Positions 910 through 47,561 are shown, numbered from the whole stretch's first letter. The stretch is DNA of 62,467 bases, filler included, from Globobulimina sp. (GCA_003354225.1; 25 parts of 25 records of this genome joined end to end with filler, not necessarily neighbours in it); one strand, 5' to 3'. Numbers and translations are program-made. Notes: a model not told the origin generated them from the sequence alone.

Positions 910-2118
910 ATGGCACGTAATAATCTCAACTGGAAGCAAAAAAATAGGGAATATATGCCTCAGGTTTGGATTTGATAAAAGCATAGTAAACGACGATTAA
1001 ACCACATAAAACAACGATAGGCATCGAAAGAAGATTTGATGGCGCGACAAAAAGGTTAAATTTTGAATATTTGCATGTACACACTATGAGATAATATAAT
1101 TAGTAATATGTATAACTGTATACGTACATATGTATAATATGAACAAATAAATAAATAAACAGATCGATATAAATTAAGCAAAGTGTATCAAAATGGGATC
1201 TGGTACATCGACAATGATAATAATATGATGAAAAAGAGAAAGGGTAAAAGCAAAAGAAAGAGCAAAGGGAGTGACAGATTTTATAATTATGCGGTATCAA
1301 CAAATCAAAATCCACAGAAAAAAAAGAATAAAAATAAATCCAAATCGAAATTAAAAGTTAAATCGGCGTCGACCGCCTGCATATTTTATCAAAAAGGCGC
1401 TTGTTTAAAAGGCAAAAGCTGTCCCTTCAAACACGAAGGCGTAAAAGGACAGAATGTGGATAAGGACTCGTTGGATTTGTATCAGATTTGCTGGGATTTT
1501 GCCGCTGGACATTGTGGGCGGGGCAGTAAATGTCGATGGTTACATTCGGTAAATGACAAAAATGAGAGTAAAGAATATAAATTCAATTCGACTGACAGTC
1601 ATAAACAATATTCGTATTCGTCGGGAAAGAAAGAAAAAGAAAATGAAAATGAAGAAAAACCGGATGTTAACATTGAGAAATTTATTCCGCGCATAAATAT
1701 TTATAAAAATAAATCAGAATTTGAAAAGGCAGAATATTTGCTTTGTTGTGAAGGATTGAAAAACAATGAAAAGATATTGGACGGACACTATGAATCTTTA
1801 AAATGGAAATCGGCATTCAATTATTTATTTTTTGGCGATCAGAATGTTAATTTATTGAATAAAAATGATGCAAAAATCATTAATCAAAACATGGAAAACC
1901 ATAATTTACGAATGAAATTTTTTAAATTATTAAACAAAAATGGGGTTAAAAAAACAATTGAAATTTATAAAAATGAAAATCAAAAAGATAAAACAAATGG
2001 CGATGAGAATAATGATTATAATAAAACAAATGGTGCAAATACAAATGGTGCAGATGTAGTGAATGATGATATTGACGAATTAATGAATTTTATTTATGGC
2101 AAAGTTATTAAAACATAA
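910..2118 (+). CDS. Tandem CCCH zinc-finger protein, 3 exons (910-963, 1021-1054, 1163-2118)
   Basis: Two C-x7-C-x5-C-x3-H motifs (CIFYQKGACLKGKSCPFKH; CWDFAAGHCGRGSKCRWLH). GT-AG introns 964-1020 and 1055-1162 link ATG 910 in frame to the long ORF. Confidence 0.8.
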
Positions 2119-2405
2119 AATGTAAACTTTTTCTTATTTTATTTACTTGTTTTGTTTGTGTTAAGTATTAATATTCGATATAAATTTCAACTTCTTATAT
2201 TATATTTGTTGATAATCGTATTCCAAGCAAACCCAATGCAAACTTAAGTTGTCGTATTTTTTAAGTGAGCAAACAATGGCACATTAGAAGCTGATGAAAC
2301 CAAACCACAACCTAATCATTAATAATGCTAAATCTTTAATAGATATATCAACCCCAGTTCCAACGTTAATGTGTGTAGTATTTAAATTTTCATAAAGAAA
2401 TTGAG

Positions 2406-2505
2406 NNNNNNNNNNNNNNNNNNNNNNNNNNNNNNNNNNNNNNNNNNNNTTAATTAATTAANNNNNNNNNNNNNNNNNNNNNNNNNNNNNNNNNNNNNNN
2501 NNNNN
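2406..2505. other. Artificial contig-joining spacer (N-run, TTAATTAATTAA, N-run); 24 such spacers recur about every 2.5 kb
   Basis: Identical 100-nt structure each time; the linker puts stops in all six frames; contigs decrease in length from 2405 to 2401 nt. Confidence 0.98.
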
Positions 2506-3012
2506 TTCCTCCAATGATATATCAATACTTGTAATAAAATCACTGTTAGTAATACTAATAAAAATGAATAAGACTCAGTCTGTGCCTTCTCATCCATTAC
2601 TCCGCGATGGTAATTATGTCGATGTTCATTATGAATGTTATTGTGTTGGATTACTTTGGAATGTAACATTGGTTCTGCTTTATTCAAATCATCAACAGGA
2701 ATTTGTTCAACTTCAGATTGTTTATTACTGTCATCATGTAGTTTCCTATGATGATTATCCAGGTATTTGTCCCTACGCAATGAGTCGGTATCGAATAAAT
2801 AACCTATGCTGATTGGTCAGTGTGTTATGATGTGGGATGTAATTAGATGTAGGTACAAAATTAGTGGACACACTTGTCTTGTTTATCTTTATCGATAATA
2901 GAATGGTTGTCATCAAATGCAAATTCTTCAGCCATGATCGTTAGAAAAACCTTCAAGTGAAAGGTTTTTGTCATTTACTCATTTATTTTCGGAAACGCTG
3001 CGTTTTTCAAGC

Positions 3013-4910
3013 ATGTTAGCTATACAAGCCATATGTATCATTATAATCCTTCTTGTCTGTGCTTATAACTCTGCCTCTAACACTTACAATATATCGTATC
3101 ACCCAAACGGAGAGATAATATGGCAATCCACATCTGATTTTGTGCCTATTCAATCACAATCCTATGGCGAAATAAGATTAGGACAAATAATGAGTATTGA
3201 GTTTGATTTCATATTTGAAGGCAGAGGAAATGTTCCTAACTCTGGATTTACGAATCAATTTTTTCGTATCGGTGCTGATGGATTTCTAAGTCAATATTGT
3301 GAAGGTGAAAACTCAAAATATTCATCTATGTGGTTAAAATACGGAGGTGGCAGCTCTGGGATACTCGACATACAATTTACATCTGGTGCTTCATCATGTA
3401 GCACCAAACATTATTTAGACAATTATGGTGAGCTGAATGTTGGTGCGAATCATCATATTAAAATATCATTAACTAACACAGCAGCAGACATTGTAATAAC
3501 TGGTGGAGGCGCTGGCAAGACATCGCCGTATACAGAATCCTGGCCACGAGAGGAAACTCCTGAAAATATTCTCGGAAACAATGTTTCTGTTTGGTGGATG
3601 GGAAATAAATATTCTGGTCTCTATAATCCTGGTTTGGCTACGTTCTCAAATATAATTATAAAAACAAATATATTTGCTCCACCATCCATAAATCCGACCA
3701 ATAATCCAACTGCCACTCCATTGACTCCAACTATATTTCCAAGTACATCTCCAACTATATATCCCAGTATATATCCAACTATATTTCCAACTACACTCCC
3801 AACTACATATCCAAGTACACATCCCACTATATATCCTAGTACATATCCAACTGTGTATCCTACAACAAATCCAACCAACACACCAACAAACAATCCTATT
3901 ATTGGCACAAAATCACCAACATCAATCACGCCAAATCCAACTAGTTCTCCCACTAAACATCCGACTGGAAATCCCACCAAAAATCCTACTGGAAATCCAA
4001 CTAATACACCAACAGAAAATCCAATTATTGTAACACAATCAGCAACCTTATCTCCTACTAAACTACAGACTAAAAATCCGACCAATGCACCCACGGAGAA
4101 CCCAATTGTTGCTACAGAATCTCCAATAACAGATGGACAGATTGATGGAAATGGCCAAATTACCTCAACAATGAGACCAGATATTCCAGATCACCAAACA
4201 TCAAAAGATAAGCTATTGGCAACAATGGATATAATGATGATTGCTATCAGTGTTACTATAGTGATGGTGTCGTGTTGCATAATTTGTGGACTGGTCATGT
4301 TATATAAGAAAAGGAAAGCACATGAATCAGATAACGTTTCACCAGCACTCAAACAATCAACATTAGAAATTGAAATGCCAGCAATTAGTTATAATATTCA
4401 ACCTGATACTGTTTCGAGTCATGATATCCGTTTTCAACAGCAACAGCATATTGAATATAACCCACCTGATCGGATGCAGGATTTTCATATAGAGACATAT
4501 GAGTGTAATAATAATCAGATTCCTGATGCAGATGCCCCATACACTCCGGATGGTGTTGTAAAAGCCGGATTTGCACAGATAAATCCAAAGCCAATGTTAG
4601 GTTATTTATCTGCAGCGCAGCAGCAGGAGGTATATGTTACAGCAGGAGGACCAGAAAAAGAACCAAGTACTAGTCCGCAAATTGTGTACCAAGATGAGCA
4701 ATTGCAAGAATCAGAGTATATTCAACGGGAAACAGAGACAATTGATGACAATAAAGTTGCAGAGTTCATTTGTTATTCACCTCATATTGATAATGATGAG
4801 AAAGATCCAGAGATGCCATTATCGCCTGGAAATGATCAGGATTTTGATGATTTGATGTATGAGGTACCGATAGAAAACCAGATGACAATTGGAGTTATTG
4901 AGGATTCAAA
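3013..4910 (+). CDS. Type I membrane surface protein: signal peptide, beta-sandwich (LamG/ConA-like) domain, PT-repeat stalk, TM helix, acidic tail; 3'-truncated
   Basis: Hydrophobic N-terminus MLAIQAICIIIILLVCA; many PTxx/PSxx repeats; TM IMMIAISVTIVMVSCCIICGLVMLY followed by KKRK. Confidence 0.75.
3690..4110 (+). repeat. Coding 12-nt tandem repeat (PTxx/PSxx mucin-like stalk)
   Basis: Repeated ccaactatatat/ccaagtacatat/aatccaact units encoding PTIY, PSTY, PTNN, PTGN. Confidence 0.85.
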
Positions 4911-5088
4911 NNNNNNNNNNNNNNNNNNNNNNNNNNNNNNNNNNNNNNNNNNNNTTAATTAATTAANNNNNNNNNNNNNNNNNNNNNNNNNNNNNNNNNN
5001 NNNNNNNNNNTTTTATTGACAAGCATAAAAAATTTTCCTTTATTTGCTGAGTAATGTCTGTTATATTACCAGTAATTACCAAGCTTGT

Positions 5089-7215
5089 ATGGATTTCCTT
5101 GATATGGACTCTCCAGAACCCGAACCCAGAGATGTTGAAGACATAAAAGAAGACGATCTAGTGAGTAATAATAATAATAGACGTGGTTCGTACACGATGA
5201 ACAACCCTCACATCCATGCCATAATCAAGCAATTCCAATCTACCATCAACGAATTACAATTAGAACTCGAATCCGCGTCGGTAGAAAACGAACAGTTAAT
5301 GGTGAAGAGCGAGACCTTAATCATCGAATACGACGCCAAGATCGACGAATTAAATTTAGAAATCGACGAACTGCAAATCGAATCGCAACAATACCAGATT
5401 CGTTACAGCGAAATCAACGAAGAATTGCATGAGTTGCGATCGCGCCAAGCCGACCACGTTTCCTCTGGCAAAGAGAACCAAGAGCTTCTGCTCAGACTAC
5501 AGAACAAAGAGCAAAACGAGATCTCAATGATGATCGAATTGGAACAGAGCCACAAACAAAACCAAAGCCTGAAGAAACAAATCAAAAACGGCAACGAGAA
5601 CATCACCAAATTGCAGCACGCCATGATCCAAATCAAGAAAGACAAATCCATCATGGACAAGAACATGGAATCCAGCATGGATAAATACGACATTTTGCAG
5701 CAACATTCCCGCGCAGAAATCCAGAATCTCACCGCCCGCTTATCGCAGTTATCGCGCGAGAATGAGATTTATCGCCAGAATCTGTCCACGGCCGAGGCTG
5801 AGAAGATGGAGATGCAAAATAACTTCACCGAGGCCACTATGGAGTTATTGCACGACGAGATGAACGACGCCGAAGCGGGCAATTATGCGACGGATGGCGG
5901 CCCCATGCGATTGGAGCGGGTGTCGACCAGTGATATGCACCGCAGATTCGCCAGCATCAACAGCCAAAACTCCGTCGATATTGGCGCCAATTCCCATTTT
6001 ATTAAAGGGCGCTTTAACTCTCAAACCTCGTTACCGGATCAGTCATTGCTAGAAAGCTTTGACGATCAACGCTATCATTCGCGCAAATCGTCGGTGCAGT
6101 CGTTAGATTCGAGGATGGGTTCATACGCTGGCGACGCTGCCTACGCTCCGCCCATTGATGTGGCCAAACTGAAGCAGGATATTAAAGAGATTTTAGTGTC
6201 GCATTTGAATTCATTGCCATCGCAATCGCCCACTTTCGATCCGAAATTGTTTGTGGAATTCGAGCGGTCCATCAATGAGAAGATCAAAAATATCCTGGAT
6301 TCGCGGCACGATATGCAGCAGTTTGAAAATATCATCAATGAGAAGATTAAGGGCATTCTGGACTGCATCCAGGCGATGAATGAGAGCATCAATGAGAAGA
6401 TGGATGAGCAGAAGGAGCGTATTGACGAAGTGGATGATGGCGACGCCGACGCACAGCGCATGGAGCGGATCCGGGAGATATTGTACGAGACCATTGAGAA
6501 TCAGATGAGTGTGTTTCAGATCTCTTTGGAGAACCAAATCGGTGGTACGGTGAATGAGCACTTACAACATGTGATTGAGCAGAAAGTTAATGGCAAATTG
6601 CGGGAGGATATCAAGTGTGATATGAATGAGTGTGTGGATGGGATGAAAGAGGAAATAATGGAGAATTATAACGATGGCCGTAATGAGAATGCGGCGGAGA
6701 AGGACAAGAAAGAGAAAGAGGTGGCATTTGATGAGGAAATGTTGAATAATAAGTTGGAGAGCGCCATGGATAAAACTATGGATGGCAAAATTGATGGCTT
6801 TATGGCGGAATTTCGAAAGGAAGTTATACCGGAATTTATGGCCATATTTGAACAGTTATCGAATGAAAATAAGGGGATCAATTATAACGATTATGACGAC
6901 GAGAAAGCAAACTCGAATCGAAATGAATTGTTGTCACTGAACGAGACGTTGAAGAAAGAGATTTTTGTGTTGAAGCAAGAGAAGAATGAGCATGACAAGA
7001 TATTGCGCAGTGCGGCGACGTCCAAAGTGCACCAAGTGGTCAAGTTGCAGAATTTGTTGGATCACATGAGGACTGATAACAGGTTTTTGCAGTTTCAGTT
7101 GAATAAATATCAAGAAACCTTTGCGAAAATCAAAGAGAGCCAAGAAAATAATGTTGTCAATAAGTTTTGGGGCTATTTTGGACAAAATAATACTTTCAAT
7201 CGCTTATCTACATAA
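5089..7215 (+). CDS. Large coiled-coil protein of unknown function
   Basis: About 700-aa uninterrupted ORF rich in E/Q/K/L heptads; no catalytic motif recognised; first ATG at 5089. Confidence 0.8.
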   Translation: MDFLDMDSPEPEPRDVEDIKEDDLVSNNNNRRGSYTMNNPHIHAIIKQFQSTINELQLELESASVENEQLMVKSETLIIEYDAKIDELNLEIDELQIESQQYQIRYSEINEELHELRSRQADHVSSGKENQELLLRLQNKEQNEISMMIELEQSHKQNQSLKKQIKNGNENITKLQHAMIQIKKDKSIMDKNMESSMDKYDILQQHSRAEIQNLTARLSQLSRENEIYRQNLSTAEAEKMEMQNNFTEATMELLHDEMNDAEAGNYATDGGPMRLERVSTSDMHRRFASINSQNSVDIGANSHFIKGRFNSQTSLPDQSLLESFDDQRYHSRKSSVQSLDSRMGSYAGDAAYAPPIDVAKLKQDIKEILVSHLNSLPSQSPTFDPKLFVEFERSINEKIKNILDSRHDMQQFENIINEKIKGILDCIQAMNESINEKMDEQKERIDEVDDGDADAQRMERIREILYETIENQMSVFQISLENQIGGTVNEHLQHVIEQKVNGKLREDIKCDMNECVDGMKEEIMENYNDGRNENAAEKDKKEKEVAFDEEMLNNKLESAMDKTMDGKIDGFMAEFRKEVIPEFMAIFEQLSNENKGINYNDYDDEKANSNRNELLSLNETLKKEIFVLKQEKNEHDKILRSAATSKVHQVVKLQNLLDHMRTDNRFLQFQLNKYQETFAKIKESQENNVVNKFWGYFGQNNTFNRLST

Positions 7216-7591
7216 TATATTAATATTTAATCTGATCAGAATCTACTTTTATAGCTCCGAGTGTTGTTTGTTTGTTTTTCACGTTCGAATTCATTCCTTT
7301 TTGATGTTGTCAATGAATGTTGAGTGTTGAATGAATGATGAATTTTAATATGTTTAATATTTTTTTGTTTTTGTTCTTTTTTTTTTTTATTTTTTTTTTT
7401 TTTTTCTTTTTTTTTNNNNNNNNNNNNNNNNNNNNNNNNNNNNNNNNNNNNNNNNNNNNTTAATTAATTAANNNNNNNNNNNNNNNNNNNNNNNNNNNNN
7501 NNNNNNNNNNNNNNNATTACCAAAAATATGGACAATGAATTTTCGAAAACACAGACAATTTCAGAGTGTGCTGTCGATTTGTCTCTGTTTT

Positions 7592-8638
7592 TCATAAATA
7601 TACAGTAATATATACAACATACATTGTCGTGGCAGTCTCAGTACTCTGCCTTATACTGCAGTCTCCGCCAGTGGAGCCATAGCCCCATGTACCACTATTA
7701 AAAGTAAACCGAGTCGACCAATCACATATATAATTCCAAAATGTATTCTCTGGCGAATTGCTCGTAGTGACTTGTACATTTCTCAACGTTGCACTGAATG
7801 TATTATACCATGAACTGCCCAGATACACGGCGCGATCCATTACAATTGGATGGGACTCGGTATCCGAATCATACACAGTCGCGCCCGCAAAGGTAATTGT
7901 TAAATGTCTCTGTGTCTGATGTAAAGTATAAAGATATTCAGTGCCCAACGCATAGCCTGAACTGGAATCATGGCTTGGATTAGAATTAGAAATCAATCCA
8001 AAACTTGACCGAATATAACGAGAAGTTCCTTCAATATATATGGCCGGATATCGCTGCGAGTCATCATTGCCAAAATGGAGAATATTGCCCCAGCCACTGG
8101 GCCAGCTCTGGAATGTAATATAAAATGAAATATACACTTCATCTAAAATGTCAATGGTGCCGATGAGAGTGCCTTGTCCGCGGATTCGCACATAACTCGG
8201 CTTATCGTTGAGCACAGAGAAGCCGTTGGGATAACCACATAAACCGCTATAAGTATCAGCGCAGTCGAAATCGACCCATTCATCTGAGGAATAATAAAGA
8301 CCGGTGCAATCTTGATCGCCACCGACATTGTTTGGTTGGTCAGACATCCACGGTGTGGTGAAATATGTGGTGCCATAGTTCCAGGGCGTGCTATCGGACC
8401 AAACCCAGGTATCTTCTACAACATCAGTAAGACCTATCCATGCATCAGCGAGATATGTTGCGTATGCCTCTGTGTTTTCGGATGAGTTGTGTATTGAGGC
8501 TAAATGTCGATCATAATAAAATAAACACGTTGCTTCCCAATTTGAGTGTGTTAGTTGATAGTCGCCGTTGTATATATATTTTTGTGAATGTACATGTGCT
8601 ACAATATACACAAGGGGGAATGTTAAAGACCATGACAT
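7592..8638 (-). CDS. Secreted C-type lectin domain plus beta-sandwich domain protein (probably continues past an intron and the contig end)
   Basis: Signal peptide; CTLD motifs HLASIH, WIGLTD, WVWSD, W..DQPNN...QDC, WVDFDC; then ILHFG..RYPAIYI module shared with 25920-27140. Confidence 0.85.
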   Translation of the reverse strand: MSWSLTFPLVYIVAHVHSQKYIYNGDYQLTHSNWEATCLFYYDRHLASIHNSSENTEAYATYLADAWIGLTDVVEDTWVWSDSTPWNYGTTYFTTPWMSDQPNNVGGDQDCTGLYYSSDEWVDFDCADTYSGLCGYPNGFSVLNDKPSYVRIRGQGTLIGTIDILDEVYISFYITFQSWPSGWGNILHFGNDDSQRYPAIYIEGTSRYIRSSFGLISNSNPSHDSSSGYALGTEYLYTLHQTQRHLTITFAGATVYDSDTESHPIVMDRAVYLGSSWYNTFSATLRNVQVTTSNSPENTFWNYICDWSTRFTFNSGTWGYGSTGGDCSIRQSTETATTMYVVYITVYL

Positions 8639-9240
8639 TGTTCCCGGCTAAAGCTTTAATGACACAGTTTTTTTCTCTTAGAAACTGTTTTTTTCCCCAA
8701 CATTAATTCCATCAGTAATCCAATCCAATCCAACCCAACCACATATTAACCGATTCAATTCAATTAGTGGATGCAATCAACAGTTAAGAATGCATTCGCA
8801 CATTACACATTGCATTCTGTATTTCGGTAACACTCAGGTTCTGCAGATGCAAAAACGGCTGCGGTTCGGTTTGGTAATGGAAATAAATAAGGAAAATGCA
8901 CCTGTTTATTGGCACTAATATCGAAATGAAACATTATCAAATTTATCAAATACAAAATAATTATTTTTCATTCCAATATAAGTATTTCCAATAAACAATA
9001 TATAAAACTGTTCATTTTTCTCTTTTTTTTATTACAGTTTTTTGCATTGCCAATTACAGTGATATTCAATGCATCATTTTGAATGTGTTGAACTTATCAA
9101 AATATGAAAATACACAGCAAATCATGGATCTCCTGGGTGGTAAAAGCATGGCTATGTATTTGAAGTGCGGACGCTTGTTTTGTGTTCTTTCAGTGTTGAT
9201 ATTATCGGTTCTGTTTTTTGTGTTAACGTAACTCTGATTG

Positions 9241-12889: not shown

Positions 12890-14335
12890 ATGGCAAAGGA
12901 AATTATCACCATATGTATTGGCCAAGGTGGTGTGCAATTGGGTGAGTCTGTGTGGAAACAATACAACGCAGAACATTGCATAGCAAGCGACGGAACATAT
13001 ACTGACGAAACGAAAGATGCAGACACTCAATTTCTGAATTTCTACCAAGAATCACAAACAGGCAAATACAATGCCCGATGTATTATGATTGACACAAATC
13101 AACAAACAATTAACAACCTAAAGGCCTCGAAATATAGTGAATTATACAAGGCACAGTATTTATTATCACACAAATTCGATGCTGAAAACAACTTTGCTTC
13201 TGGTCGCTGCGTGATTGGTCCACAACTTATTAACTTGATAAATAACAAAATACGCAAAGCCTCAGAGCATTGTGACAATTTGCAAGGTTTCATCGTCAAA
13301 CATTCCATTGGCGGCGGTACAGGATCTGGTTTAGGCTCATTAATATTGGAAAACATGAGCAATGACTTTAAAAAATTAACAAAAATCGGATTCGAGATTT
13401 TCCCCTCACCCACAATTTCAAGCTGCATTGTTGAGCCATACAACTCGTTGTTATCCATTCATTACTTATTGCAATATCTAAATATGTCGATTGTGTTAGA
13501 CAACGAAGGCATATATGAAATCTGTCAAAGGTTCTTAGATGTGCGACGGCCCAGTTTTGACAACTTAAATAATTTGATTCGGAAAAACATATCATCCTTT
13601 ACTGGAACATTTAGGTTTGGCAATAAATCGCGCAGTGTTGGACTGGATGAATTTGTTACAAATTTGACACCTTTTCCAAGATTGCATTTTATGATTACAT
13701 CCATAGCGCCGTGTATGCCATCTCGGAGGAGCGAGTCACGCAATTTGAGTTTGATAAAAATTGTAGAATCTGCATGTTCGCCGAAGCTTTTTTCCGCAAA
13801 GTTGAGTAATAAAATATTGTTTGTTTCTGAGATATGATTTAATTTGGACAGAATTGCTGATTTTGATATTGAGGAGGATAAATATACTGCGATGTATTTG
13901 AATGTCAGCGGGGAAATTGATGTGAAAGAATTGAATGTGTGTAGTAAGTGGTTGGTGGATGAGAAAAAAGTAGTATTTACAGAATGGACACCATGTCAAA
14001 ACATTAATGTGTTAGCAAAGAAAGAGAGTATTGTGGCTTTGGAAGATGATGATATTGGACGTGTTTGCAAAGAAAGTGTTTCTATGATAGGGAATAATTA
14101 TGCGATTTCCAGGTTGTTTAGAGAAAGAATTGCGATGAAATATGATTTGATGTATTCACAGAGAGCATTTGTACATTGGTATGTTGGTGAAGGGTTAGAA
14201 GAGAGTGATTTTGAGCAAGCAAGGAATGATATCACTGATTTAGAGAAAGAATATCTGGATACATTGATGGATCAATATTCCAGTGATGATAACAGTGAAG
14301 AAAACAGTGATATCGATGATGCTAAAAAAGATTGA
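12890..14335 (+). CDS. Highly divergent alpha-tubulin (retarian alpha2-like), 2 exons, intron 13801-13851
   Basis: KEIITICIGQGGVQLG, GGGTGSG, VEPYNS, PFPRLHF, YDLMYSQRAFVHWYVGEG; removing a 51-nt GT-AG intron joins the two ORFs as FSAK/IADFD. Confidence 0.92.
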
Positions 14336-15028: not shown

Positions 15029-15173
15029 TCGATTTATTCGTTTTTTAGCACTATCATATGCCGATTGGTTATCCACACAAAAGGACATTGACGATGACGA
15101 TATTAAAAAAGAATGGAAACATGCTCTCAAAATGCAACCAAACGGTTTCAATTTTGGTGGACTTGCCAGTTAA
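15029..15173 (+). CDS. 3' end of an unidentified gene
   Basis: Open frame RFIRFLALSYADWLSTQKDIDDDDIKKEWKHALKMQPNGFNFGGLAS* from the contig start. Confidence 0.45.
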
Positions 15174-15230
15174 TTGCATAAACACACATATCTGCGAATT
15201 TGCGTACTTCAAAATTGCAATCAACAATAC

Positions 15231-17277
15231 ATGACAGATGGAACCAATGAAGAATACAAATCTGACATAAAAGCTTCATTCCAATCCGACATCAAACCAG
15301 AAAACAACAGCAATGGCCCCCAGGCCAATGGACATGTTCCACTCCCAAACAACAACACTAACAACCAAACCAATTCAGGCGATCGCGACAAAACCAATAA
15401 TAATGAGAACAACCACACCGTGAACCACAACGAAAGCACTGATCGATTGCAGTTAAATGAGAAGAAGCCGTTGGATGGATTTAAACGGCTATATACAGAA
15501 AACGACGAACAATTAAAAGCGCAATTGAACAAAATCATCACTGAGGACGTCGATTTCAATCGATTGCGCCGAGAGATTGAGGGGCCGCCGGCCATGTTAT
15601 CCGACCCCGACGATGTAGCCATTGACAAGATCTTATTGTCAGACTCGAAGAGCAATGACAGCGACACCACGCCGCATACTCCCATCCCACTGTCGCACGA
15701 ACAGGAGAATATGAGGAAATATTTCGAGTTATTAGGCAAGCCACAACAGTTATTATTGAAGTCCAAATTGCCATTATTGTCTGACATCACTACACTAGAC
15801 AAACGCAACGAAATCTTGATCAAAAAGCTCTCGCTTTGCGGCACCAATTTCGATTTCTTGACTACAGTATGAGGATATTTCTATATTCAATACAACTGCA
15901 ACACGCATAATCGCACACAGAACCCATTGGAATTGAAGGGAATTGAGAAGAAGAAGCAAATGTTGACGGAAATCTTGGAGTACATCGCTCGTTATTCATG
16001 GTACAATGAGGAGATCTTAGAGCGGTGCATCTGGACTATTTCGACCAATTTATTTCGGGCCCTACCTCGCAGCGGAAAGAACCCCGACGTCGAAGATGAG
16101 CCCTTTGAAGATCCCGGCTGGGCCCATTTGCAATTGATTTATGATTTGACTTTGCGATTAGTGATCAATACAGATGTGGATAAAAAGGTATTTATATACT
16201 AAATCACCTGGACACATACGCGCAAATTCGCAACATCTTTATATAAAATCACACACATAGACTATGAAGAAGTATTTAGAGGGCGAGTTTGTGGACAATG
16301 TGATTGAGTTATTTGCGTCTGAAGATCCCCGCGAACGCGAATATTTAAAAACGATTTTGCATCGAATCTATGGCCGCTTCATGCCTTTACGCGCCTTGAT
16401 TCGACAGTCGATCGCCAACTGTTGTTATCGTACCATCTATGAACAGTACACTGTGCAGTTTGAGTACTTCGACGACATTATCGATTACGCCAACAATGGG
16501 CAACAATACAAACGCGGCAAAGCCATCGCCAAAGAAAAGTCGTATTACCGCCACAGCATCCGCAACGAAAATGGAATCGCGGAATTTCTAGAGATATTTT
16601 GCAGCATAATCCACGGCTTCAGCATCCCGGTCAAGAAGGAACACAAAGACTTCCTGCGCAATGTGTTGGTGCCGCTGCACAAATGCCGCAAATTGGAGAA
16701 GTTCCATGAACAGTTGGTGGCGTGCTGCGTGCAGTTCGTGTTCAAGGACCCGTGCGTGGCGCCGGTGATTTTGGGCGGATTGTTGCGGTTTTGGCCCGTT
16801 CAGTCGCCTACGAAGGAGGAGATGTTCATTGCTGAGGTGGTGAATGTGGTGAACGCGATGATCAATCACAAGAATGGCTTCTCGTGGCCCGATAATAAGG
16901 AGATCTGTCTGTCGGTGATCGATAAGTTGGTGTTTTGCATGAAGTCGCATCATCATTCGGTGGCGGAGCGCGCGTTGTTAGTGTGGGGCGAGGACGCCAT
17001 TGAGATATTGATCGATTTGGACAAAAAGAGTATATGGCCGAAAATCGTGCAGGCTTTTTTGGATAATAAGAACCATTGGAATGAGAGTTTGAGGGAATGC
17101 AATGAAGAGGCCATGGATGTGTTTAAAGTGCGGGATCCGCAGACTTTTAATAGAATAAAGGAAGAGTATGAAAGGAATACCATTATAAAGATGCAGACTA
17201 AGCCGACGGTGAAGGATACGAAACGCGATCAGAAATGGATGCGGATTAAGCAAATGGCGCAGAAAAATAAAAAATAA
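15231..17277 (+). CDS. PP2A regulatory subunit B' (B56 family), 3 exons, introns 15867-15920 and 16188-16260
   Basis: LIKKLSLCGTNFDF, NLFRALP, EDPGWAHLQLIY, LFASEDPREREYLKTILHRIYGRF, NGIAEFLEI, LLRFWP, VAERAL, HWN. Confidence 0.95.
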
Positions 17278-17532
17278 TAGTTTTTTTCTTTTGGAGTTTC
17301 GCAGTTTTTTTGTGTGTGTTTTTCGATTATATTTTACTATAAATTTTACTGTATTTTATCAGCTCGCTGCAGATTTTTCTTTTTTCTATTTTTTTTTTCT
17401 TTTGTTTATTTTTTGTAATGTGAAAGAAAATCNNNNNNNNNNNNNNNNNNNNNNNNNNNNNNNNNNNNNNNNNNNNTTAATTAATTAANNNNNNNNNNNN
17501 NNNNNNNNNNNNNNNNNNNNNNNNNNNNNNNN

Positions 17533-19936
17533 CGTAATTCTGCCGCCAATCGCCGCCAATCAACGCGCACAAAACATGCAGCAAACTGCAGAAAATGAGG
17601 CCAAAATAGGCCAGCAACAAATGAATGTGTTTGTATCCCAACAAATTGTCCAAAACGAGGCGCACAATGCACATCTGGCGCAATCTGCCATTCTCATTCA
17701 AAAAGGACTGCAAACTGCTCATTCGCGACAACAGCATCAAGATCAAAGAGAGCAGCATCACGCGGCCCGTACACACCATCACCAAATCACGCACTGTCAG
17801 CGACGCCATCTCATTCAAATTCGCGTACGGCAACAACGGGAAAAACAGCCGCTCGCAGACCCCAAACGCGCAAATCCCAAAATACATCAACAAAAACAGC
17901 AGAAACTCGCCATATTCGTACAACAATGCATAGACCACAGCGTCCACCTTCTTCCACCGGCCCACACCCCCAAAAATCAGCGAGCTCCGCAACTTATGAA
18001 TACTGCAACAATTACACCGTTTTGCTTTGGCCGCATACGCATTGAAGCCATTATAATCAACCAGCAGCGGAGAGCTTTTTCCATCGTCATTCTCGTAATA
18101 CGCGCAATCTTCGTCAATGGCCGCATTCCCATCGCATTTCTCGTCCATTTTGCTCTGAACATTAACATCCAATGTGGTCACCGTCGCCGTCGAGTTGTTG
18201 GACTTTATCGAGGTTTGCAGCTTTAAGCCGGCGCCAATACCGCTAGTCCGCGGAGTGTGTGTCACCGAATTGGCCATCAAGCCGCCGCCCAATTTCTTGC
18301 GGGTGTTATTCGGCGACAGCACCGGGTTCGGCGCCGTGTAGCTCTGCGTCGACTTTATTATGCCCAACAAATGTTTCTTCCGTTTCCGCCCCGCCGCCGC
18401 AGCGCCATTCGGCGATAATAAGCTCGTCCGCGTCAACACGGTGCCGCTCGACACATTGTTCAATAGTTCCAGCTCCAACGCCACCTCCTTCTCCTTCGGG
18501 AAGCTCGTGTAAGTGATCACATTGGTCATCAGCTTCGAAGTGATGTAACACGTCGCAATGCCGTCGATCTTCAGATTCCAATCCAAGTCTTGCTTCATTT
18601 TGATGTTCCGCGGCTGTGTCGGGTGGTTTATGTCATCTCTGTCCAGGTTCCGCAGCCGTTTATAAATGAACAAATTCAGGTTCTTCAAGTCCGGGTATTG
18701 CGAGATCCGAAAGTCAGTCGATAGCAGCCACGGGTTATTCGTGTAGTATTTGGGGATATATTGGCTGAAAAAGGACGAAACCTCTTGGTTTTGCATGATC
18801 AGCGGACTCGCCGCCAAATGCTTGTTGGTTTTGCGGTCCTTCCCAGCACCGCCAATCACCGACGCATTGCCATCGGCGCCGACGAACACCGCCGGACCGA
18901 TGAGGCGTAATTTGTTGCCGCCGGCGGGCATAGCGATTTTGGGCAGGGAGCGCGACGCCGAATGGGGGGCCAACATTCGCGGCAAATCGTCGTCGACGTA
19001 CTCCATGTCGTCGTCAGCCATCTCCGTGGCGGCGGCGGCTGCGGCGGCGGCTTTGAACGGGTTGTTTAGCGGTGGATTGTTGAATGATTCTTCTTCGCTG
19101 GATTCGAGTCTGTATTTTTGATAGGAATCGGATTCGTCGCTGTCTTCATATTGCGACTCGTCGTCGTCGTCATCTTCTTCGTCGTCTGTACTGTGCGTTT
19201 GATCGTCGTCGCGATCGTTTGGATCGTATTCGAGTATGACGGCGGTGTCTGCCTCGTCTTCGTGGTCTGTGTGCGGTGAATGTTGCTGTTGGTCGCTGTG
19301 GGGATTGGGGGCTGGGTCTATTTGGGGGATATTTGTCATAGCCATTGATTGGACATAATCGTATAAATGCATTGGAGGGGAATTATCAGAAAAGGCATCG
19401 TTGATATCATCGGCAGAAAAACAGTGTTCATCGGCACGAGACATACCAGATACGGCGGGGGCGGCATCTGCGGCTTCTGTACATCTGTCGGTGTCGCACT
19501 TTATTGCTATATTCGCTGTGTATACGCAGATAAAAACGCATTGAAAACGTATAAAAATGAGAGAAAAGCACATACGAAGCGACAGAGCCGCGGTATTTTG
19601 GATTTGTAGCTTGAGATTGAACTCTTTTGGCTGTGGCGGCATATGCGGCGATTCTGGACTTTGTGGCTCGTCGCATTGAATCAATTCAGTGCCCACTTTG
19701 ATGTCCAATATGCCGACGATGTCATCCACGGTCTTATGCTCATTCTCATTCTCCACACCATTCTTAAACCGCACTTTTCGACTTCGACTGTTTGAGCGCG
19801 AACTCCCTAACCGAATGGTGGGCATTTTCTGCGTCATTTGGAGCGGCGCTTTGCGAGACATCAAATTCTCGGATTTGGCCATATCGGCAAAGGCCACCTC
19901 CTTCCTTTTGGCGCGCCGCTTCTTTCCTTTATTGAC
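17533..19936 (-). CDS. Large protein fragment: long acidic/disordered region followed by TM helices, possibly ferric-reductase-like; in-frame intron 19516-19575
   Basis: Over 800 codons open; poly-D/E and poly-A tracts; C-terminal hydrophobic helices with HIHLLLAYFGLIFCSLLH; 60-nt AT-rich GTATGT...ACACAG segment within GC-richer coding DNA. Confidence 0.6.
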
Positions 19937-25919: not shown

Positions 25920-27140
25920 TTAACAATACCCCAAACTCTCCAATCTGATAATGTTGGTGCATAATATGCATGGTGCATTCGTTGGTACATTCGAAGGTGA
26001 GATAGTATGCAACTGCCCATTATCAGGAAACACAATATTTAACGAATAAAATATAGTTTTTGAAAAATATGTTCCAAGTCCCACGGACCCTTTGTTAAAT
26101 GTTGAATCAGAGATTGAAAATAAATATATATTGTTAAGGCTCACCGCAAAATTATTACCAGAAACAACAACTTTTAATGTGTTCCGTGTATTCATAAACA
26201 GCAGATCGTTATCTTCGCCATAACTCTCCGAATAATCATATATATTAACAAAGTCTCCCCAGCTATGATACTCGAACCAATCCACTCCCCCATCTACGGT
26301 CGAATTACCTATATACGCACTCATTACGTATGTCAGCCCACGAGATACTGTGCGATAAATAATGTTAGCATCTGGGGAATAATTTGCCGCACGGTCTACA
26401 ATATTAAATTCCATACTCAGTGTATAATCTGTCCAATCTCCACTGGTTATGTCCCGATCATACATCCATACCAAAGCATTTCCCGACGCTGTATTCTGTT
26501 GTGTCAACTCACAGGAATTCGCGTCATACGTCCAGGTCCCAGTGAGTACACTAAATCGTTTTGCATAATCACATAAATAATTATATGCCGGGTCGCTGTT
26601 ACCAGTATACACCGTTAAAGCATATATTGTTGCATTCAATGGTGAATTCCACGGCTTTCCAATATACATATTTTTGTTGGATAATATTGAATGCGACGCA
26701 ATGGATGAATTGTAAATGGTGGAAGAATCGACAGTGAGTTGGACAAACTGATGAGTTATATCAAATTGGAAATGATAGGTTTGGCCCAAAGTGAGTGGTG
26801 TTGATGATTGCCAATGTTGTGATGGGTCGGAAATGCCATTGAATTCGATCTGGAATGTTTTCCGGTCTGCATCCACATGAATTGATGGATAGTTTTCTGT
26901 TTGGTCATCTCCAAAATGTAATATATTTGCGAGTGGTGTGGACGATGAAAATGAGTGGATTACGATGTCAAACTGAATTTGTACGTCGTCTAAAATATCA
27001 ATAACGCCAATTAGATTTGATGCGGATGGAATTCTCATATTGTTTGCATTGTCATCTATTACGTATATGGGGGTTAAGGGCATGAACAATGAATAAAACA
27101 GAAACACCCATCTGTGCGGAACGCATTGTTTTTGAGTCAC
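25920..27140 (-). CDS. Secreted protein with two beta-sandwich domains (LamG-like plus DUF1080-like)
   Basis: Hydrophobic leader; IDILDDVQIQF..NILHFG..YPSIHV module; WTDYTLSMEF...LKVVVSGNNF..SLN...DSTFNKGSVGL. Confidence 0.7.
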   Translation of the reverse strand: MTQKQCVPHRWVFLFYSLFMPLTPIYVIDDNANNMRIPSASNLIGVIDILDDVQIQFDIVIHSFSSSTPLANILHFGDDQTENYPSIHVDADRKTFQIEFNGISDPSQHWQSSTPLTLGQTYHFQFDITHQFVQLTVDSSTIYNSSIASHSILSNKNMYIGKPWNSPLNATIYALTVYTGNSDPAYNYLCDYAKRFSVLTGTWTYDANSCELTQQNTASGNALVWMYDRDITSGDWTDYTLSMEFNIVDRAANYSPDANIIYRTVSRGLTYVMSAYIGNSTVDGGVDWFEYHSWGDFVNIYDYSESYGEDNDLLFMNTRNTLKVVVSGNNFAVSLNNIYLFSISDSTFNKGSVGLGTYFSKTIFYSLNIVFPDNGQLHTISPSNVPTNAPCILCTNIIRLESLGYC

Positions 27141-27850
27141 TCCTCCGGCCTCAACTTTTGTTTATTTTCTGTGGCCAGCAACCATGTCAGTTTTGTCTCA
27201 ACTCGACCACAGATTGGTAATGGATGCGGCCAAAAGATTAAAAAACGTGGTAACAAGAACACACGTTCTTGAATCATCATATTTCAACAAAGCAACTGGT
27301 TGCAATGTTTATTTTAAATGTGAAAATTTCCAAAGAGTTATATAAAATATATTCACTACCAATCAACACCAAAATATCTCAACTATTTAATTGTTTACAG
27401 ACCGGTGTTTTTAAGTTCCGTGGAGCGTCCAACGCAGTGAGTCTTNNNNNNNNNNNNNNNNNNNNNNNNNNNNNNNNNNNNNNNNNNNNTTAATTAATTA
27501 ANNNNNNNNNNNNNNNNNNNNNNNNNNNNNNNNNNNNNNNNNNNNGGGTAAGTAATGACACAAAACAACCAAGAGCATTCGGATCAACGCTAATGAAGAA
27601 GATCATTCATCACTCGGTAAAAATCGTATCAAATGAGCTACCAACTTATCACAAATTCTTTGATTTTAACAAAATGCCTCTTATAGACATTTAAAACAAA
27701 TAAGTAATTGATAACAGACATAGAGGTCAAGTTTATTTTTATTCTTAGTCATGAATTTGATTAAATCTAAACTATTTTCAGTTCATAGCACCAATCGATC
27801 TCCTAGAGGTATGGCAAGAACCCAAAGCTAAAAGGAATAGCAGGAAGGCA

Positions 27851-44960: not shown

Positions 44961-45140
44961 NNNNNNNNNNNNNNNNNNNNNNNNNNNNNNNNNNNNNNNN
45001 NNNNTTAATTAATTAANNNNNNNNNNNNNNNNNNNNNNNNNNNNNNNNNNNNNNNNNNNNCTACGAGTGATTCCCTATACGATTGGAAACCCTGAGAGGA
45101 ATCAACAGGGAACCATGACAGTACTGATATTAATTACCAG

Positions 45141-45428
45141 TGCTTTACGCCCGGCATATTGTTGGCTTTGCGCGAAATCCGCAAATATCAAAAAAGTACT
45201 AATTTCTTAATCAAAAAACTCCCATTCCAACGTCTCGTTCGTGAAATAGCCAGAAACATGTGTCCCGATCGTAGATTCCAATCGTCCGCTTTGGCGGCAC
45301 TACAAGAAGCCAGCGAGGCTTATCTAACTGGATTGTTTTCCGACACAAATTTATGTGCTATTCATGCCAAAAGAATCACCATAATGCCCAAAGACATGCA
45401 ATTGGCACGTAGAATCAGAGGTGAATAA
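45141..45428 (+). CDS. Divergent histone H3 (histone fold only; start uncertain)
   Basis: [31 protein letters not shown]...[46 protein letters not shown]. Retains the H3 Q68/F84/T107 equivalents, so not CENP-A-like. Confidence 0.92.
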
Positions 45429-45455
45429 ACGATTTAACCATGATAATTTTATTAA

Positions 45456-46117
45456 TCACTTCAAAATTTCGTGTGCAAATTCTCTTTGTAAATAATGACG
45501 TGTTTTCATTATAATAACACCAAGTAAATTCAACCCTTTCCATTGTTTCTCATCAAAACATTTTGGATCATTGAGTCCTATTCCTACAAATTGAGATAAT
45601 GTAAAATATAGACAATGAACAAACCAATAGAAACTCACCAATTCCCCAAACTCTGTCGAAAGGAGAAGCTTCCGCCAATCTCATACCGATAGTTTGAAAC
45701 AGCTGCTCTCTTTCATTAGGATTTTGTCGAAACTGAATATTATTATTATTATTATTATTATTATTAGCTAGCCTAAACATTCGTGGACATTGGTACCTTC
45801 GCTATCGTCGCTTTCAACATAACAGCTTCTCTGATCTCAGCCCATTGGGATTCCGAATAGTTGTTTACTCTTCTCCCCAAACGTTTCTGCTCATCGGGTG
45901 TAGACGCTTCTAGGATAGCTTTTTGAGCTTTTTTATCATGGAAATAATAGGCTTTGTAGTGTTGAAAATACTGTTCCGTATTGAGCCAATGATGTCCATC
46001 GAGATAAAAGGTTGAAAAATAGAAATTTGAGTATATGGGAGCTCGACCGAAGAAAACCAAAAATTTCTCTTTTCCATCCGGACTATCGCCGATAACAACT
46101 CCCCGCGACACATTCAT
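45456..46117 (-). CDS. NADAR/YbiA-family protein, 3 exons (introns 45733-45796 and 45584 or 45578 to 45638)
   Basis: YSNFY, TEQYFQHYKA..F.D, KRLGRRV, W...REAVM....AK/FRQN, LAEASPFDRVWGIG/LNDP, WKGLNLLG.IIMKTR; GT-AG introns restore one frame. Confidence 0.92.
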
Positions 46118-46250
46118 AGCGAACTATTGGTTTCTTCTCATGTCCTTAGGTGGGTGTTGAAGTTAATTGCATAGTTTAAACTTCCCGCCTTGACGCGCGT
46201 GTCTCTAGAAGGGGTACATTTTTCCTACGACATCGAGAACAAAAGTAGGT

Positions 46251-46280
46251 CTACTACTACTACTACTACTACTACTACTA
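46251..46280. repeat. (CTA)n microsatellite; (TAA)n at about 45740-45766 and (TG)n at about 47391-47411 in the same contig
   Basis: Directly visible. Confidence 0.9.
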
Positions 46281-46340
46281 TTTGTTGTGACTGTCTCCTG
46301 GTCGATTACTCAGCAATTTAATTACGAAATAGTGGTTTCC

Positions 46341-46823
46341 ATGGATAATATGGCTTCTTCGATGCCCGATGTGGATGGTGATTTACCCGAAGCTTTTCTC
46401 AGTATAATATCCTTGCAATATGTTAAATGGAGAGTGTCATTAGAGGAATTCGATTTCGAAGACTGTCCCGAATTACCACAACTCGATCCCATCGACAATA
46501 TTTTGAGAGTTAAATGCATTGAAAAAGAATCGAGCAATGATGGGTTGATATTCGATATGATATCCGATTTGAACATTTCCCCCCAAACAGCTTTTCCGGA
46601 TTTTATGGACTTGATTAATAAAAGACTATTTGATAAAGGTGTGGATTGGGATAAAATTTATGTACTATTCGCTTTTTGTGGGAAAGTTTCGATCAATTGT
46701 TTGGATAAAGGCATACCTCAAGTAATCGGAAATGTTTGCGATTGGCTCGCCGTTTATATTAACTCTCGATTGACAGATTGGATAGAAAATAATGGCACAT
46801 GGACACATGTAATTGAAGAATAG
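46341..46823 (+). CDS. Bcl-2 family protein lacking a C-terminal TM anchor
   Basis: BH4-like IISLQYVKWRV; BH3-like ILRVKCIEKE; BH1 LFDKGVDWDKIYVLFAFCGKV; BH2 LTDWIENNGTW; linker DLNISPQTAFPDF resembles Bcl-xL QLHITPGTAYQSF. Confidence 0.88.
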   Translation: MDNMASSMPDVDGDLPEAFLSIISLQYVKWRVSLEEFDFEDCPELPQLDPIDNILRVKCIEKESSNDGLIFDMISDLNISPQTAFPDFMDLINKRLFDKGVDWDKIYVLFAFCGKVSINCLDKGIPQVIGNVCDWLAVYINSRLTDWIENNGTWTHVIEE

Positions 46824-46946
46824 TAATCAAATTGTATTTCCATCGATACATTTATGTAAATACTTGATATGTAAATACAATCAATTTTTAATATGTTACA
46901 GTATAAAGACAAACTTCACATAAATCATGTGCACATCATCACTATA

Positions 46947-47366
46947 TTAATCATCGATAAGGTCTAGTATTTCGTTCGATAAGGTACATACATGTTTATA
47001 AAATATGTCAAATTCGGTAATTTTAATGATTAACGTTTTCGTTATTTGACTTAGCCGTAATTCATAATGGGGGTATGGAGGTAGTTTGCGAAAATGTAAT
47101 CCTAAATATTCTTCCGGATATTCATATTTTCCAACCAAATCTTCAATGGTAGTTTCATTTCTTACTCTGTCCATACTATATTTCAATTGAACACTCCAAA
47201 GAATGGGTAGTCCAATTTCTTCTCCACCGTTCTGCACCACACTGAACCATTCAGATTCGTCCAGTTCTCTATTGGCTAAATTCGGAACAAAAATTTCAAT
47301 GTTATCTTCAAGGCATAAAAACACAGAGTCAGTCATTTTACCAAACAGTTTTTCGTCAAATACCAT
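46947..47366 (-). CDS. Orphan protein, 139 aa
   Basis: Intact ATG-to-stop ORF filling the remaining space of a gene-dense contig; no motif recognised. Confidence 0.6.
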   Translation of the reverse strand: MVFDEKLFGKMTDSVFLCLEDNIEIFVPNLANRELDESEWFSVVQNGGEEIGLPILWSVQLKYSMDRVRNETTIEDLVGKYEYPEEYLGLHFRKLPPYPHYELRLSQITKTLIIKITEFDIFYKHVCTLSNEILDLIDD

Positions 47367-47561
47367 AGAGATTAATGTAATATTGCGAAATGTGTGTGTG
47401 TGTGTGTGTGTGATTTGGGTTACTGTGACTGCTCTAGTTTGTAGAAATAAATTTTTTTAAANNNNNNNNNNNNNNNNNNNNNNNNNNNNNNNNNNNNNNN
47501 NNNNNTTAATTAATTAANNNNNNNNNNNNNNNNNNNNNNNNNNNNNNNNNNNNNNNNNNNN

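Follow-up and report, generated by a model that had tools for sequence, protein, structure and literature searches.

The 62,467-nt window analysed here, a stretch joined from contigs of the Globobulimina sp. draft genome (GCA_003354225.1), contains at 45061–47461 a histone H3 fragment (+), a three-exon NADAR gene (−), a Bcl-2 family gene (+) and an orphan open reading frame (ORF) (−). We consider this region to be compact cellular DNA, most likely from a small invertebrate sampled together with the protist and not from a virus, and we put the probability of this reading at about one half. Judged from sequence comparison, its Bcl-2 gene represents a Bcl-2 subfamily that had not been described before and is known so far from five sequences; in its full-length members it is intron-less, predicted to be soluble, devoid of the Gly and Arg of Bcl-2 homology motif 1 (BH1) and apparently under purifying selection. 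The window is composed of 25 contigs, sorted by length from 2405 to 2401 bp, and 24 linkers of the form N44-TTAATTAATTAA-N44, and the region coincides with the limits of one whole 2401-bp contig. Since the contigs are only joined by linkers, the sequence to the left and right of 45061–47461 is unrelated to the four genes.

The Bcl-2 gene was recognised by Pfam (Bcl-2, PF00452; E 3.3e-16, 60.1 bits against a cut-off of 31.4) over profile positions 12–100 of 100. With a profile built from the protein and its two closest relatives, the best sequence match in PDB is Bcl-xL (E 1.8e-20, positions 4–155), and the alignment runs from the BH4-like first helix to BH2, in which the Trp and a Gly are kept. 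An AlphaFold (AF2) model made from a 37-sequence alignment has seven helices and a mean predicted local distance difference test score (pLDDT) of 91.9. Using Foldseek against PDB, 291 matches at E <= 0.001 were obtained with this model, the best of which is again Bcl-xL (E 1.1e-8, 26% identity; template modelling score 0.79–0.9), and the helical bundle superposes on human and mouse Bcl-xL/Bcl-2 (PDB 1r2e, 1maz, 8hln and others) with a root-mean-square deviation of about 2 Å over about 145 columns. Against the viral structure library, there is a single match at E <= 0.001, identities are 9–19% among the 50 matches listed, and an adintovirus Bcl2 appears at rank 19 (E 0.11, 14% identity). By these matches, the modelled protein resembles cellular Bcl-xL far more than the viral Bcl-2 models.

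The protein is only 23–28% identical to Bcl-xL/Bcl-2 and differs from them in several features. The BH1 sequence NWGR has lost its Gly and Arg and reads DWDK in the window and DW[DS]K in all four full-length members of its clade, whereas xWGR stands at BH1 in 104 of the 146 relatives in which this motif is recognisable (motif tally). The BH3-like helix is without the Gly-Asp pair. The BH2 motif (W..GGW) is present, with WIENNGTW in the window aligned to WIQENGGW in Bcl-xL, and no intron splits BH2 here, unlike in many relatives. A C-terminal membrane anchor is typical of the Bcl-2 family, although not universal; here no hydrophobic anchor is encoded and the stop codon comes 6 residues past the BH2 Trp. 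A hidden downstream transmembrane exon (donor 46813, acceptor near 46901) was considered and rejected, because it would supply only about 10 hydrophobic residues, and because the 6–8 residues after BH2 are conserved in two relatives (P0002 and P0003), and in the alignment they correspond to the beginning of the following Bcl-xL helix. From the loss of the anchor and of NWGR, the protein probably acts as a soluble regulator, with its classical binding through the BH3 groove weakened or retargeted. The homologues of Trichuris and Plectus are reported not to bind BH3 motifs (PMC8998228, in a passage citing Young et al. 2020), which by analogy would fit a non-classical groove in the window protein.

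To place the gene, 1.84 billion representative sequences were scanned with HMMER, giving 843 matches at E <= 0.001 and 4 at E <= 1e-30. The tree contains 69 rows and excludes matches below 120 aa in length, among them the partial P0008, as well as P0010 and all those past P0070. The window protein forms a clade with P0001 (73% identity), P0002 (63%) and P0003 (59%), with a support of 99 in the SH-like approximate likelihood ratio test (SH-aLRT), and this clade, which has a long stem (0.71), is nested in an 11-row, solely environmental clade (SH-aLRT 91). Organism names were found on 6 of the 30 top matches checked, five of them nematode (Trichinella twice, Trichuris, Plectus and Romanomermis) and one nemertean (Tubulanus), and the closest named sequence is from Trichinella (E 1.8e-29). 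These nematode homologues, such as the Trichinella "Bcl-2-like protein 1", are the closest named relatives and have the N-terminal stretch DYI..RL....W.(D/E)CP.LP in common with the window protein; in contrast to it, they keep xWGR and a hydrophobic tail, are only about 30% identical and fall outside the 11-row clade. At the level of sequence descent, the tree and the named relatives show that the Bcl-2 gene derives from protostome-type animal Bcl-2 genes.

In several of the closest environmental relatives, an intron after the BH2 Trp, an animal-typical position, is read through. The full-length clade members are without this intron and end 0–7 residues past BH2 with no hydrophobic tail; P0001/P0181, P0002/P0183 and P0003 terminate at the same place as the window protein, and P0008 is a partial N-terminal sequence that covers none of the sites of BH1, the BH2 intron or the tail. 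In P0182, from the P0002 cluster, the usual N-terminal 20 residues are swapped for an unrelated stretch of 50 residues, as if recombined or fused upstream. Between the window gene and the P0003 copy on a metagenome locus described below, the proportions of nonsynonymous and synonymous differences over 155 codons are 0.228 (pN) and 0.775 (pS, saturated). The low pN beside a saturated pS indicates that the gene is functional, old and under purifying selection, and the saturation also means that no recent mobility links the two copies.

The contig was brought to attention by a first-pass annotation made from the sequence alone. The four genes, their order and their alternating orientation as described there were all recovered in the Pfam, ORF and spliced-frame checks, and two details of the layout are exact: 27 nt (45429–45455) separate the H3 stop (45426–45428) from the NADAR stop (45458–45456), and an AATAAA hexamer (45424–45429, +) overlaps the H3 stop. 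The convergent stops are 27 and 123 nt apart and the divergent starts 223 nt apart. With AATAAA signals belonging to both H3 and NADAR, the 3′ ends of these two convergent transcripts must overlap. In our reading, the contig is ordinary, very gene-dense nuclear DNA of a cellular eukaryote, with four independent transcription units that are neighbours because the genome is compact. The same annotation had seen a grouping of chromatin, ADP-ribose-reversal and apoptosis functions, but no sign of a functional module was found, the compact genome being enough to account for the adjacency.

The NADAR gene has three exons and two GT-AG introns (64 and 55 nt), and its spliced frame encodes 180 aa. It resembles the NADAR family (DUF1768, PF08719) in that exon 1 scores above the Pfam cut-off (E 1.3e-17, 65 bits against 35.1; profile positions 12–100) and the C-terminal end of the domain, profile positions 134–162, lies on exon 3 (E 3.5e-4); the difference is that the window copy is eukaryotic, with two spliceosomal introns. 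Members of this family strip ADP-ribose from nucleic-acid bases or act as N-glycosidases. The only close relative found, P0180, is 70% identical and reads through an intron at the same position as intron 1. On comparison of the sequences, the introns, one of them position-conserved in P0180, would fit a cellular gene.

The H3 gene is cut by the contig end, and its N-terminal tail is off the contig. The remaining part is recognised by Pfam (Histone, E 3e-35, 121.6 bits against 26.4), and the best match among solved structures is H3 (PDB sequence search, E 3.2e-43, query positions 2–95), to which it aligns along the whole histone fold. The gene encodes a divergent variant that differs at about 15 of 94 aligned positions, some of them in the loop following helix 1, and ends two residues earlier than canonical H3. 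Compared with animal-type histone genes, it has an AATAAA signal and no histone 3′ stem-loop. For the orphan ORF, no Pfam family, no PHROG and no relative among 4 candidates were found, and its single-sequence model (pLDDT 35.8) is too poor for a structure search; it may be a lineage-specific gene.

Codon usage sets the contig apart from most of the window. The share of codons ending in CA (NCA) among four-fold Ala, Pro, Thr and Ser codons is 17/96 here and 993/2185 in the pooled 21 other contigs (p 1.4e-8), a pool from which three contigs rich in GC at third codon positions (GC3; contigs 3, 7 and 8) were set aside. This share is low in each of the four genes (0.18, 0.19, 0.23 and 0.06). The relative synonymous codon usage (RSCU) of the contig correlates with that of the rest at 0.57, compared with 0.73–0.90 for most contigs. 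In addition, three microsatellites, all non-coding, occur in these 2.4 kb versus six in the other 57.7 kb (Poisson P 0.002). It had been proposed from the outset that the contig is not from the foraminiferan-like host; codon usage and microsatellites are in favour of this, and it is probably right, but the trinucleotide profile is unremarkable and gives it no help. The source would be a small invertebrate, nematode-like at a guess, which was presumably sampled and assembled with an AT-rich protist supplying most contigs. Uptake of nematodes and other small animals by benthic foraminifera has been reported (PMC6547873). The reading favoured here is thus the one that the first-pass annotation had kept as its fallback, a very compact animal genome.

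A sequence that bears on the viral question lies outside the window. A metagenome scan with a 5-sequence Bcl-2 alignment returned a single locus (L001; PJEL010007397.1, 8629 bp, GC 41–47%), which carries P0003. The record set is described by its authors as an unclassified metagenome associated with the foraminifer Globobulimina, and the locus was not placed in their foraminifer genome bins (PMC6783311). Upstream of the Bcl-2 gene, positions 1105–7791 hold a decayed Maverick/Polinton-like element with penton-like, basic core-like, capsid-like, protease-like, ATPase-like, C2H2 zinc-finger and integrase-like ORFs, and with no PolB within the 8.6 kb. None of these assignments reaches a curated threshold. 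The protein-atlas clusters nearest to the capsid-like ORF have a double-jelly-roll domain (scores 0.97–0.98 at low recognition, which makes them weak evidence) and are mostly from nematodes and molluscs, again a weak indication; the protease-like ORF matches Pfam C39/C48/C5 at E 0.014–0.045 and the A32-like ATPase ORF reaches E 6.6e-4, both below the curated threshold; and the integrase-like ORF, about 110 nt from the start of the P0003 gene, was recognised by eye only. At E <= 0.01, Pfam reported only Pox_A32 (0.0016) on this locus and PHROGs gave nothing useful, PDB sequence searches returned only adenain at E 0.39 and no integrase, and the ATPase had no relative in the viral contig scan. 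Frameshifts interrupt the capsid-like and integrase-like ORFs, the Bcl-2 ORF is intact, and 76 nt after its stop there is a tRNA-Leu(TAA) gene (8397–8481, −), which could mark host DNA or an integration site. From the decay of the element, the intact Bcl-2 ORF and the tRNA-Leu that follows, Bcl-2 may be a host neighbour there.

On the window contig itself, no viral hallmark gene of the kind that marks Nucleocytoviricota, Herpesvirales, Mirusviricota or Naldaviricetes (capsid, terminase or packaging ATPase, PolB, PIF) was detected by Pfam among the four genes in the 2.4 kb examined, as the first-pass annotation had already conceded, and none of PolB, integrase, double-jelly-roll capsid, adenain-like protease and A32-like ATPase is present. 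Scans of the viral contig collection for three of the four proteins, all but H3, yielded no relatives from 141 (Bcl-2), 5 (NADAR) and 10 (orphan) pattern matches.

The contig was also compared with one public run (X1), whose contigs are identical to the window over 45163–45714 and 46292–47382, with zero differing letters. The half with H3 and the 3′ part of NADAR and the half with Bcl-2 and the orphan are each confirmed, separately. Two further runs of this sample (X2 and X3) yielded no match to the contig, a blank to which we give no weight. The X1 contigs end at three microsatellites, and the (CTA)10 repeat between NADAR and Bcl-2 is not bridged. Upstream of 45163, the X1 contig has 42 letters unlike those of the window; 30 of them are legible, and in these the canonical H3 frame, translated by eye, runs on uninterrupted (an extension of 14 codons, 10 of them legible), whereas the head of the window contig differs. 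As the X1 letters continue the H3 frame, the first ~100 nt of the window contig, which look like an intron acceptor, are doubtful. There are also short alternative contigs in X1, two with 3–4 differences in 42 nt of the Bcl-2 gene (46374–46415) and another that agrees with the window at 46589–46618 and is then wholly divergent. They could represent alleles or close paralogues, or else stem from another organism closely related to the first.

Several observations weigh against an animal source, and some of them also favour the protist itself. The GC of the contig (0.363) is inside the range of the 25 contigs (0.276–0.509), its trinucleotide make-up is no outlier (distance 1.61, with 10 of the 24 other contigs further from the mean), and the NCA contrast rests on 96 codons, with the other contigs ranging from 0.11 to 0.60. 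A very divergent alpha-tubulin-like gene at 12890–14332 of the window contains a GT-AG intron of about 50 nt with an in-frame stop (13835–13837) inside; short spliceosomal introns, similar in size to those of NADAR, are thus present in the majority organism too. The animal-type histone 3′ stem-loop was not found in an Rfam scan, whose sole match is a chance one (E 0.65), and the window H3, like its best solved match, carries Lys in the REIRKYQ stretch, a state that we take to be that of plants and protists, not of animals. No named animal sequence is closer to the Bcl-2 protein than E 1.8e-29, which means that a source animal, if any, has yet to be sampled. In addition, 45715–46291 is uncovered by X1 contigs, and the adjacency of NADAR and Bcl-2 rests on the original assembly. 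If the contig, which comes from the same assembly, is the protist's own, its Bcl-2 gene would have been acquired horizontally from an animal, possibly via a Maverick/Polinton-like element, and would have lost its intron and anchor afterwards; the long stem of the clade and its four intron-less, tail-less full-length members are as expected after such a transfer. This explanation also gains from the clade member that stands beside Maverick-like genes in a foraminifer-associated metagenome record, from the near-identical Bcl-2 variants in X1, and from caspase-like genes reported in the foraminifer Reticulomyxa (PMC10565124, PMC10959488). It is opposed by the codon usage and microsatellite density, which are unlike those of the majority contigs, by the GC of L001 and its place outside the foraminifer bins (PMC6783311), by the mostly nematode and mollusc atlas clusters of the capsid-like ORF, weak as this point is, and by the literature surveyed, in which we found no report of a foraminiferal Bcl-2. 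We regard a protist origin as less probable than the animal one, though next to it in rank. The full version of it, in which a functional Bcl-2 gene was brought from an invertebrate into the nucleus of a foraminiferan-like protist by a Maverick/Polinton-type element and remodelled there into a soluble, anchor-less protein without NWGR, appears unlikely.

A nucleus-replicating large DNA virus, the origin first proposed for the contig, is not borne out: there is no hallmark, three viral scans are negative, the Bcl-2 protein is of the cellular type and the NADAR introns fit a cellular gene. In a wider form, the contig might be the accessory-gene arm of a Maverick, Polinton or adintovirus, or belong to a larger nuclear DNA virus, endogenised or not, with genes for chromatin, ADP-ribose reversal and anti-apoptosis functions as its cargo. 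Very tight gene packing with overlapping 3′ ends would suit this, as would the lack of an intron and a tail in Bcl-2, which is frequent among captured genes. Homologues of Bcl2 and IAP have been reported in adintoviruses (PMC8502044, section 3.2), and the clade resembles such accessory genes in being single-exon and in having a 59%-identical member, P0003, about 110 nt from an integrase-like ORF on a locus with capsid-, protease- and ATPase-like ORFs. Unlike these elements, however, the window contig has no Maverick gene; the match to the adintovirus Bcl2 model is weak (14% identity), and cellular Bcl-xL is far nearer than any viral model. Bcl-2 is the only gene common to the contig and L001, the element on L001 is decayed beside an intact Bcl-2 and a tRNA-Leu, so that the gene may be a host neighbour, and the saturated synonymous sites exclude recent mobility between the copies. 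The two spliceosomal introns of NADAR, one conserved in P0180, are a further point against a virus. The only viral link is P0003 beside Maverick-like genes, outside the window, and its placement inside the L001 element is putative. We therefore consider a viral origin quite improbable. Still less probable is an assembly chimera, in which the H3–NADAR half and the Bcl-2–orphan half would be of different origin and joined across a microsatellite. X1 contigs do stop at three repeats, leaving the (CTA)10 join unverified, and the contig head (45061–45162) is at odds with the independent contig. But the breakage of contigs at microsatellites has technical causes, the NADAR gene holds together over its (ATT)n repeat and has the same exon-intron layout as P0180, and the same unusual codon preference is found in all four genes, in both halves. 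Compact DNA of a co-sampled invertebrate is the explanation that we prefer.

Coordinates of the features on the contig and of the linkers on its two sides are given in Table 1.

Table 1. Features of the four-gene contig and its borders, in window coordinates.
Feature	Position	Strand	Basis
Assembly linker (N44-TTAATTAATTAA-N44), toward previous contig	44961..45060	.	Window cut at 24 linkers
Contig head at odds with independent assembly; no verified H3 intron or acceptor	45061..45162	+	X1 contig comparison
H3, C-terminal histone-fold part, 95 codons and stop, divergent variant ending ...RIRGE	45141..45428	+	Pfam, PDB, frame translation
AATAAA hexamer across H3 stop	45424..45429	+	Read from sequence
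AATAAA hexamer, 2 nt past NADAR stop	45448..45453	-	Read from sequence
NADAR exon 3, stop 45458-45456	45456..45583	-	Spliced frame; Pfam NADAR C-terminal part
NADAR intron 2, 55 nt, GT...AG	45584..45638	-	Spliced frame
NADAR exon 2	45639..45732	-	Spliced frame
NADAR intron 1, 64 nt, GT...AG, with ATT/TAT microsatellite of 9 units from 45738	45733..45796	-	Spliced frame, repeat scan
NADAR exon 1, 107 codons, ATG at 46117	45797..46117	-	Pfam NADAR
(CTA)10 microsatellite in the 223-nt divergent spacer of NADAR and Bcl-2	46251..46280	.	Repeat scan; not bridged by X1
Bcl-2 family gene, 160 aa, single exon, no C-terminal anchor, BH1 = DWDK	46341..46823	+	Pfam, PDB profile, model, motif tally
Orphan ORF, 139 aa, convergent with Bcl-2 (123 nt between stops)	46947..47366	-	ORF call
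(TG)11 microsatellite, presumed 5′ leader of orphan gene	47391..47412	.	Repeat scan
Assembly linker, toward next, unrelated contig	47462..47561	.	Window cut at 24 linkers

The other contigs of the window encode eukaryotic genes for tubulin, a PP2A B56 subunit, queuine tRNA-ribosyltransferase and a protein kinase, and C-type lectin, laminin G, RGS and PPR are encoded there as well. The C-type lectin (7595–8647) and laminin G (25923–27161) domains, which are commonest in animals, are on contigs with majority-type codon usage; either the protist owns such domains, or there is further animal DNA in the window. Contigs 3, 7 and 8 (5011–7415, 15029–17432 and 17533–19936) have a GC3 of 0.58–0.64 and an RSCU correlation with the rest of 0.09–0.22. 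Long ORFs (728 and 801 aa) that match no Pfam family occur on two of these three; the PP2A B56 subunit is on contig 7. These contigs are probably from yet another organism, so that the window would be a mixture.

If the contig comes from a co-sampled animal, it shows that small contigs of animal origin occur in draft assemblies of protists collected in the field, and a Bcl-2 or caspase gene in such an assembly, when it lacks physical linkage, should not be read as a sign of non-animal apoptosis machinery or of a virus. If it comes from the protist, it would hold a rare Bcl-2 family gene outside Metazoa; taken with the caspase-like genes reported in Reticulomyxa, some components of the animal apoptosis toolkit would then have passed into Rhizaria. 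The clade member that adjoins a Maverick-like element suggests a route by which such Bcl-2 genes could move.

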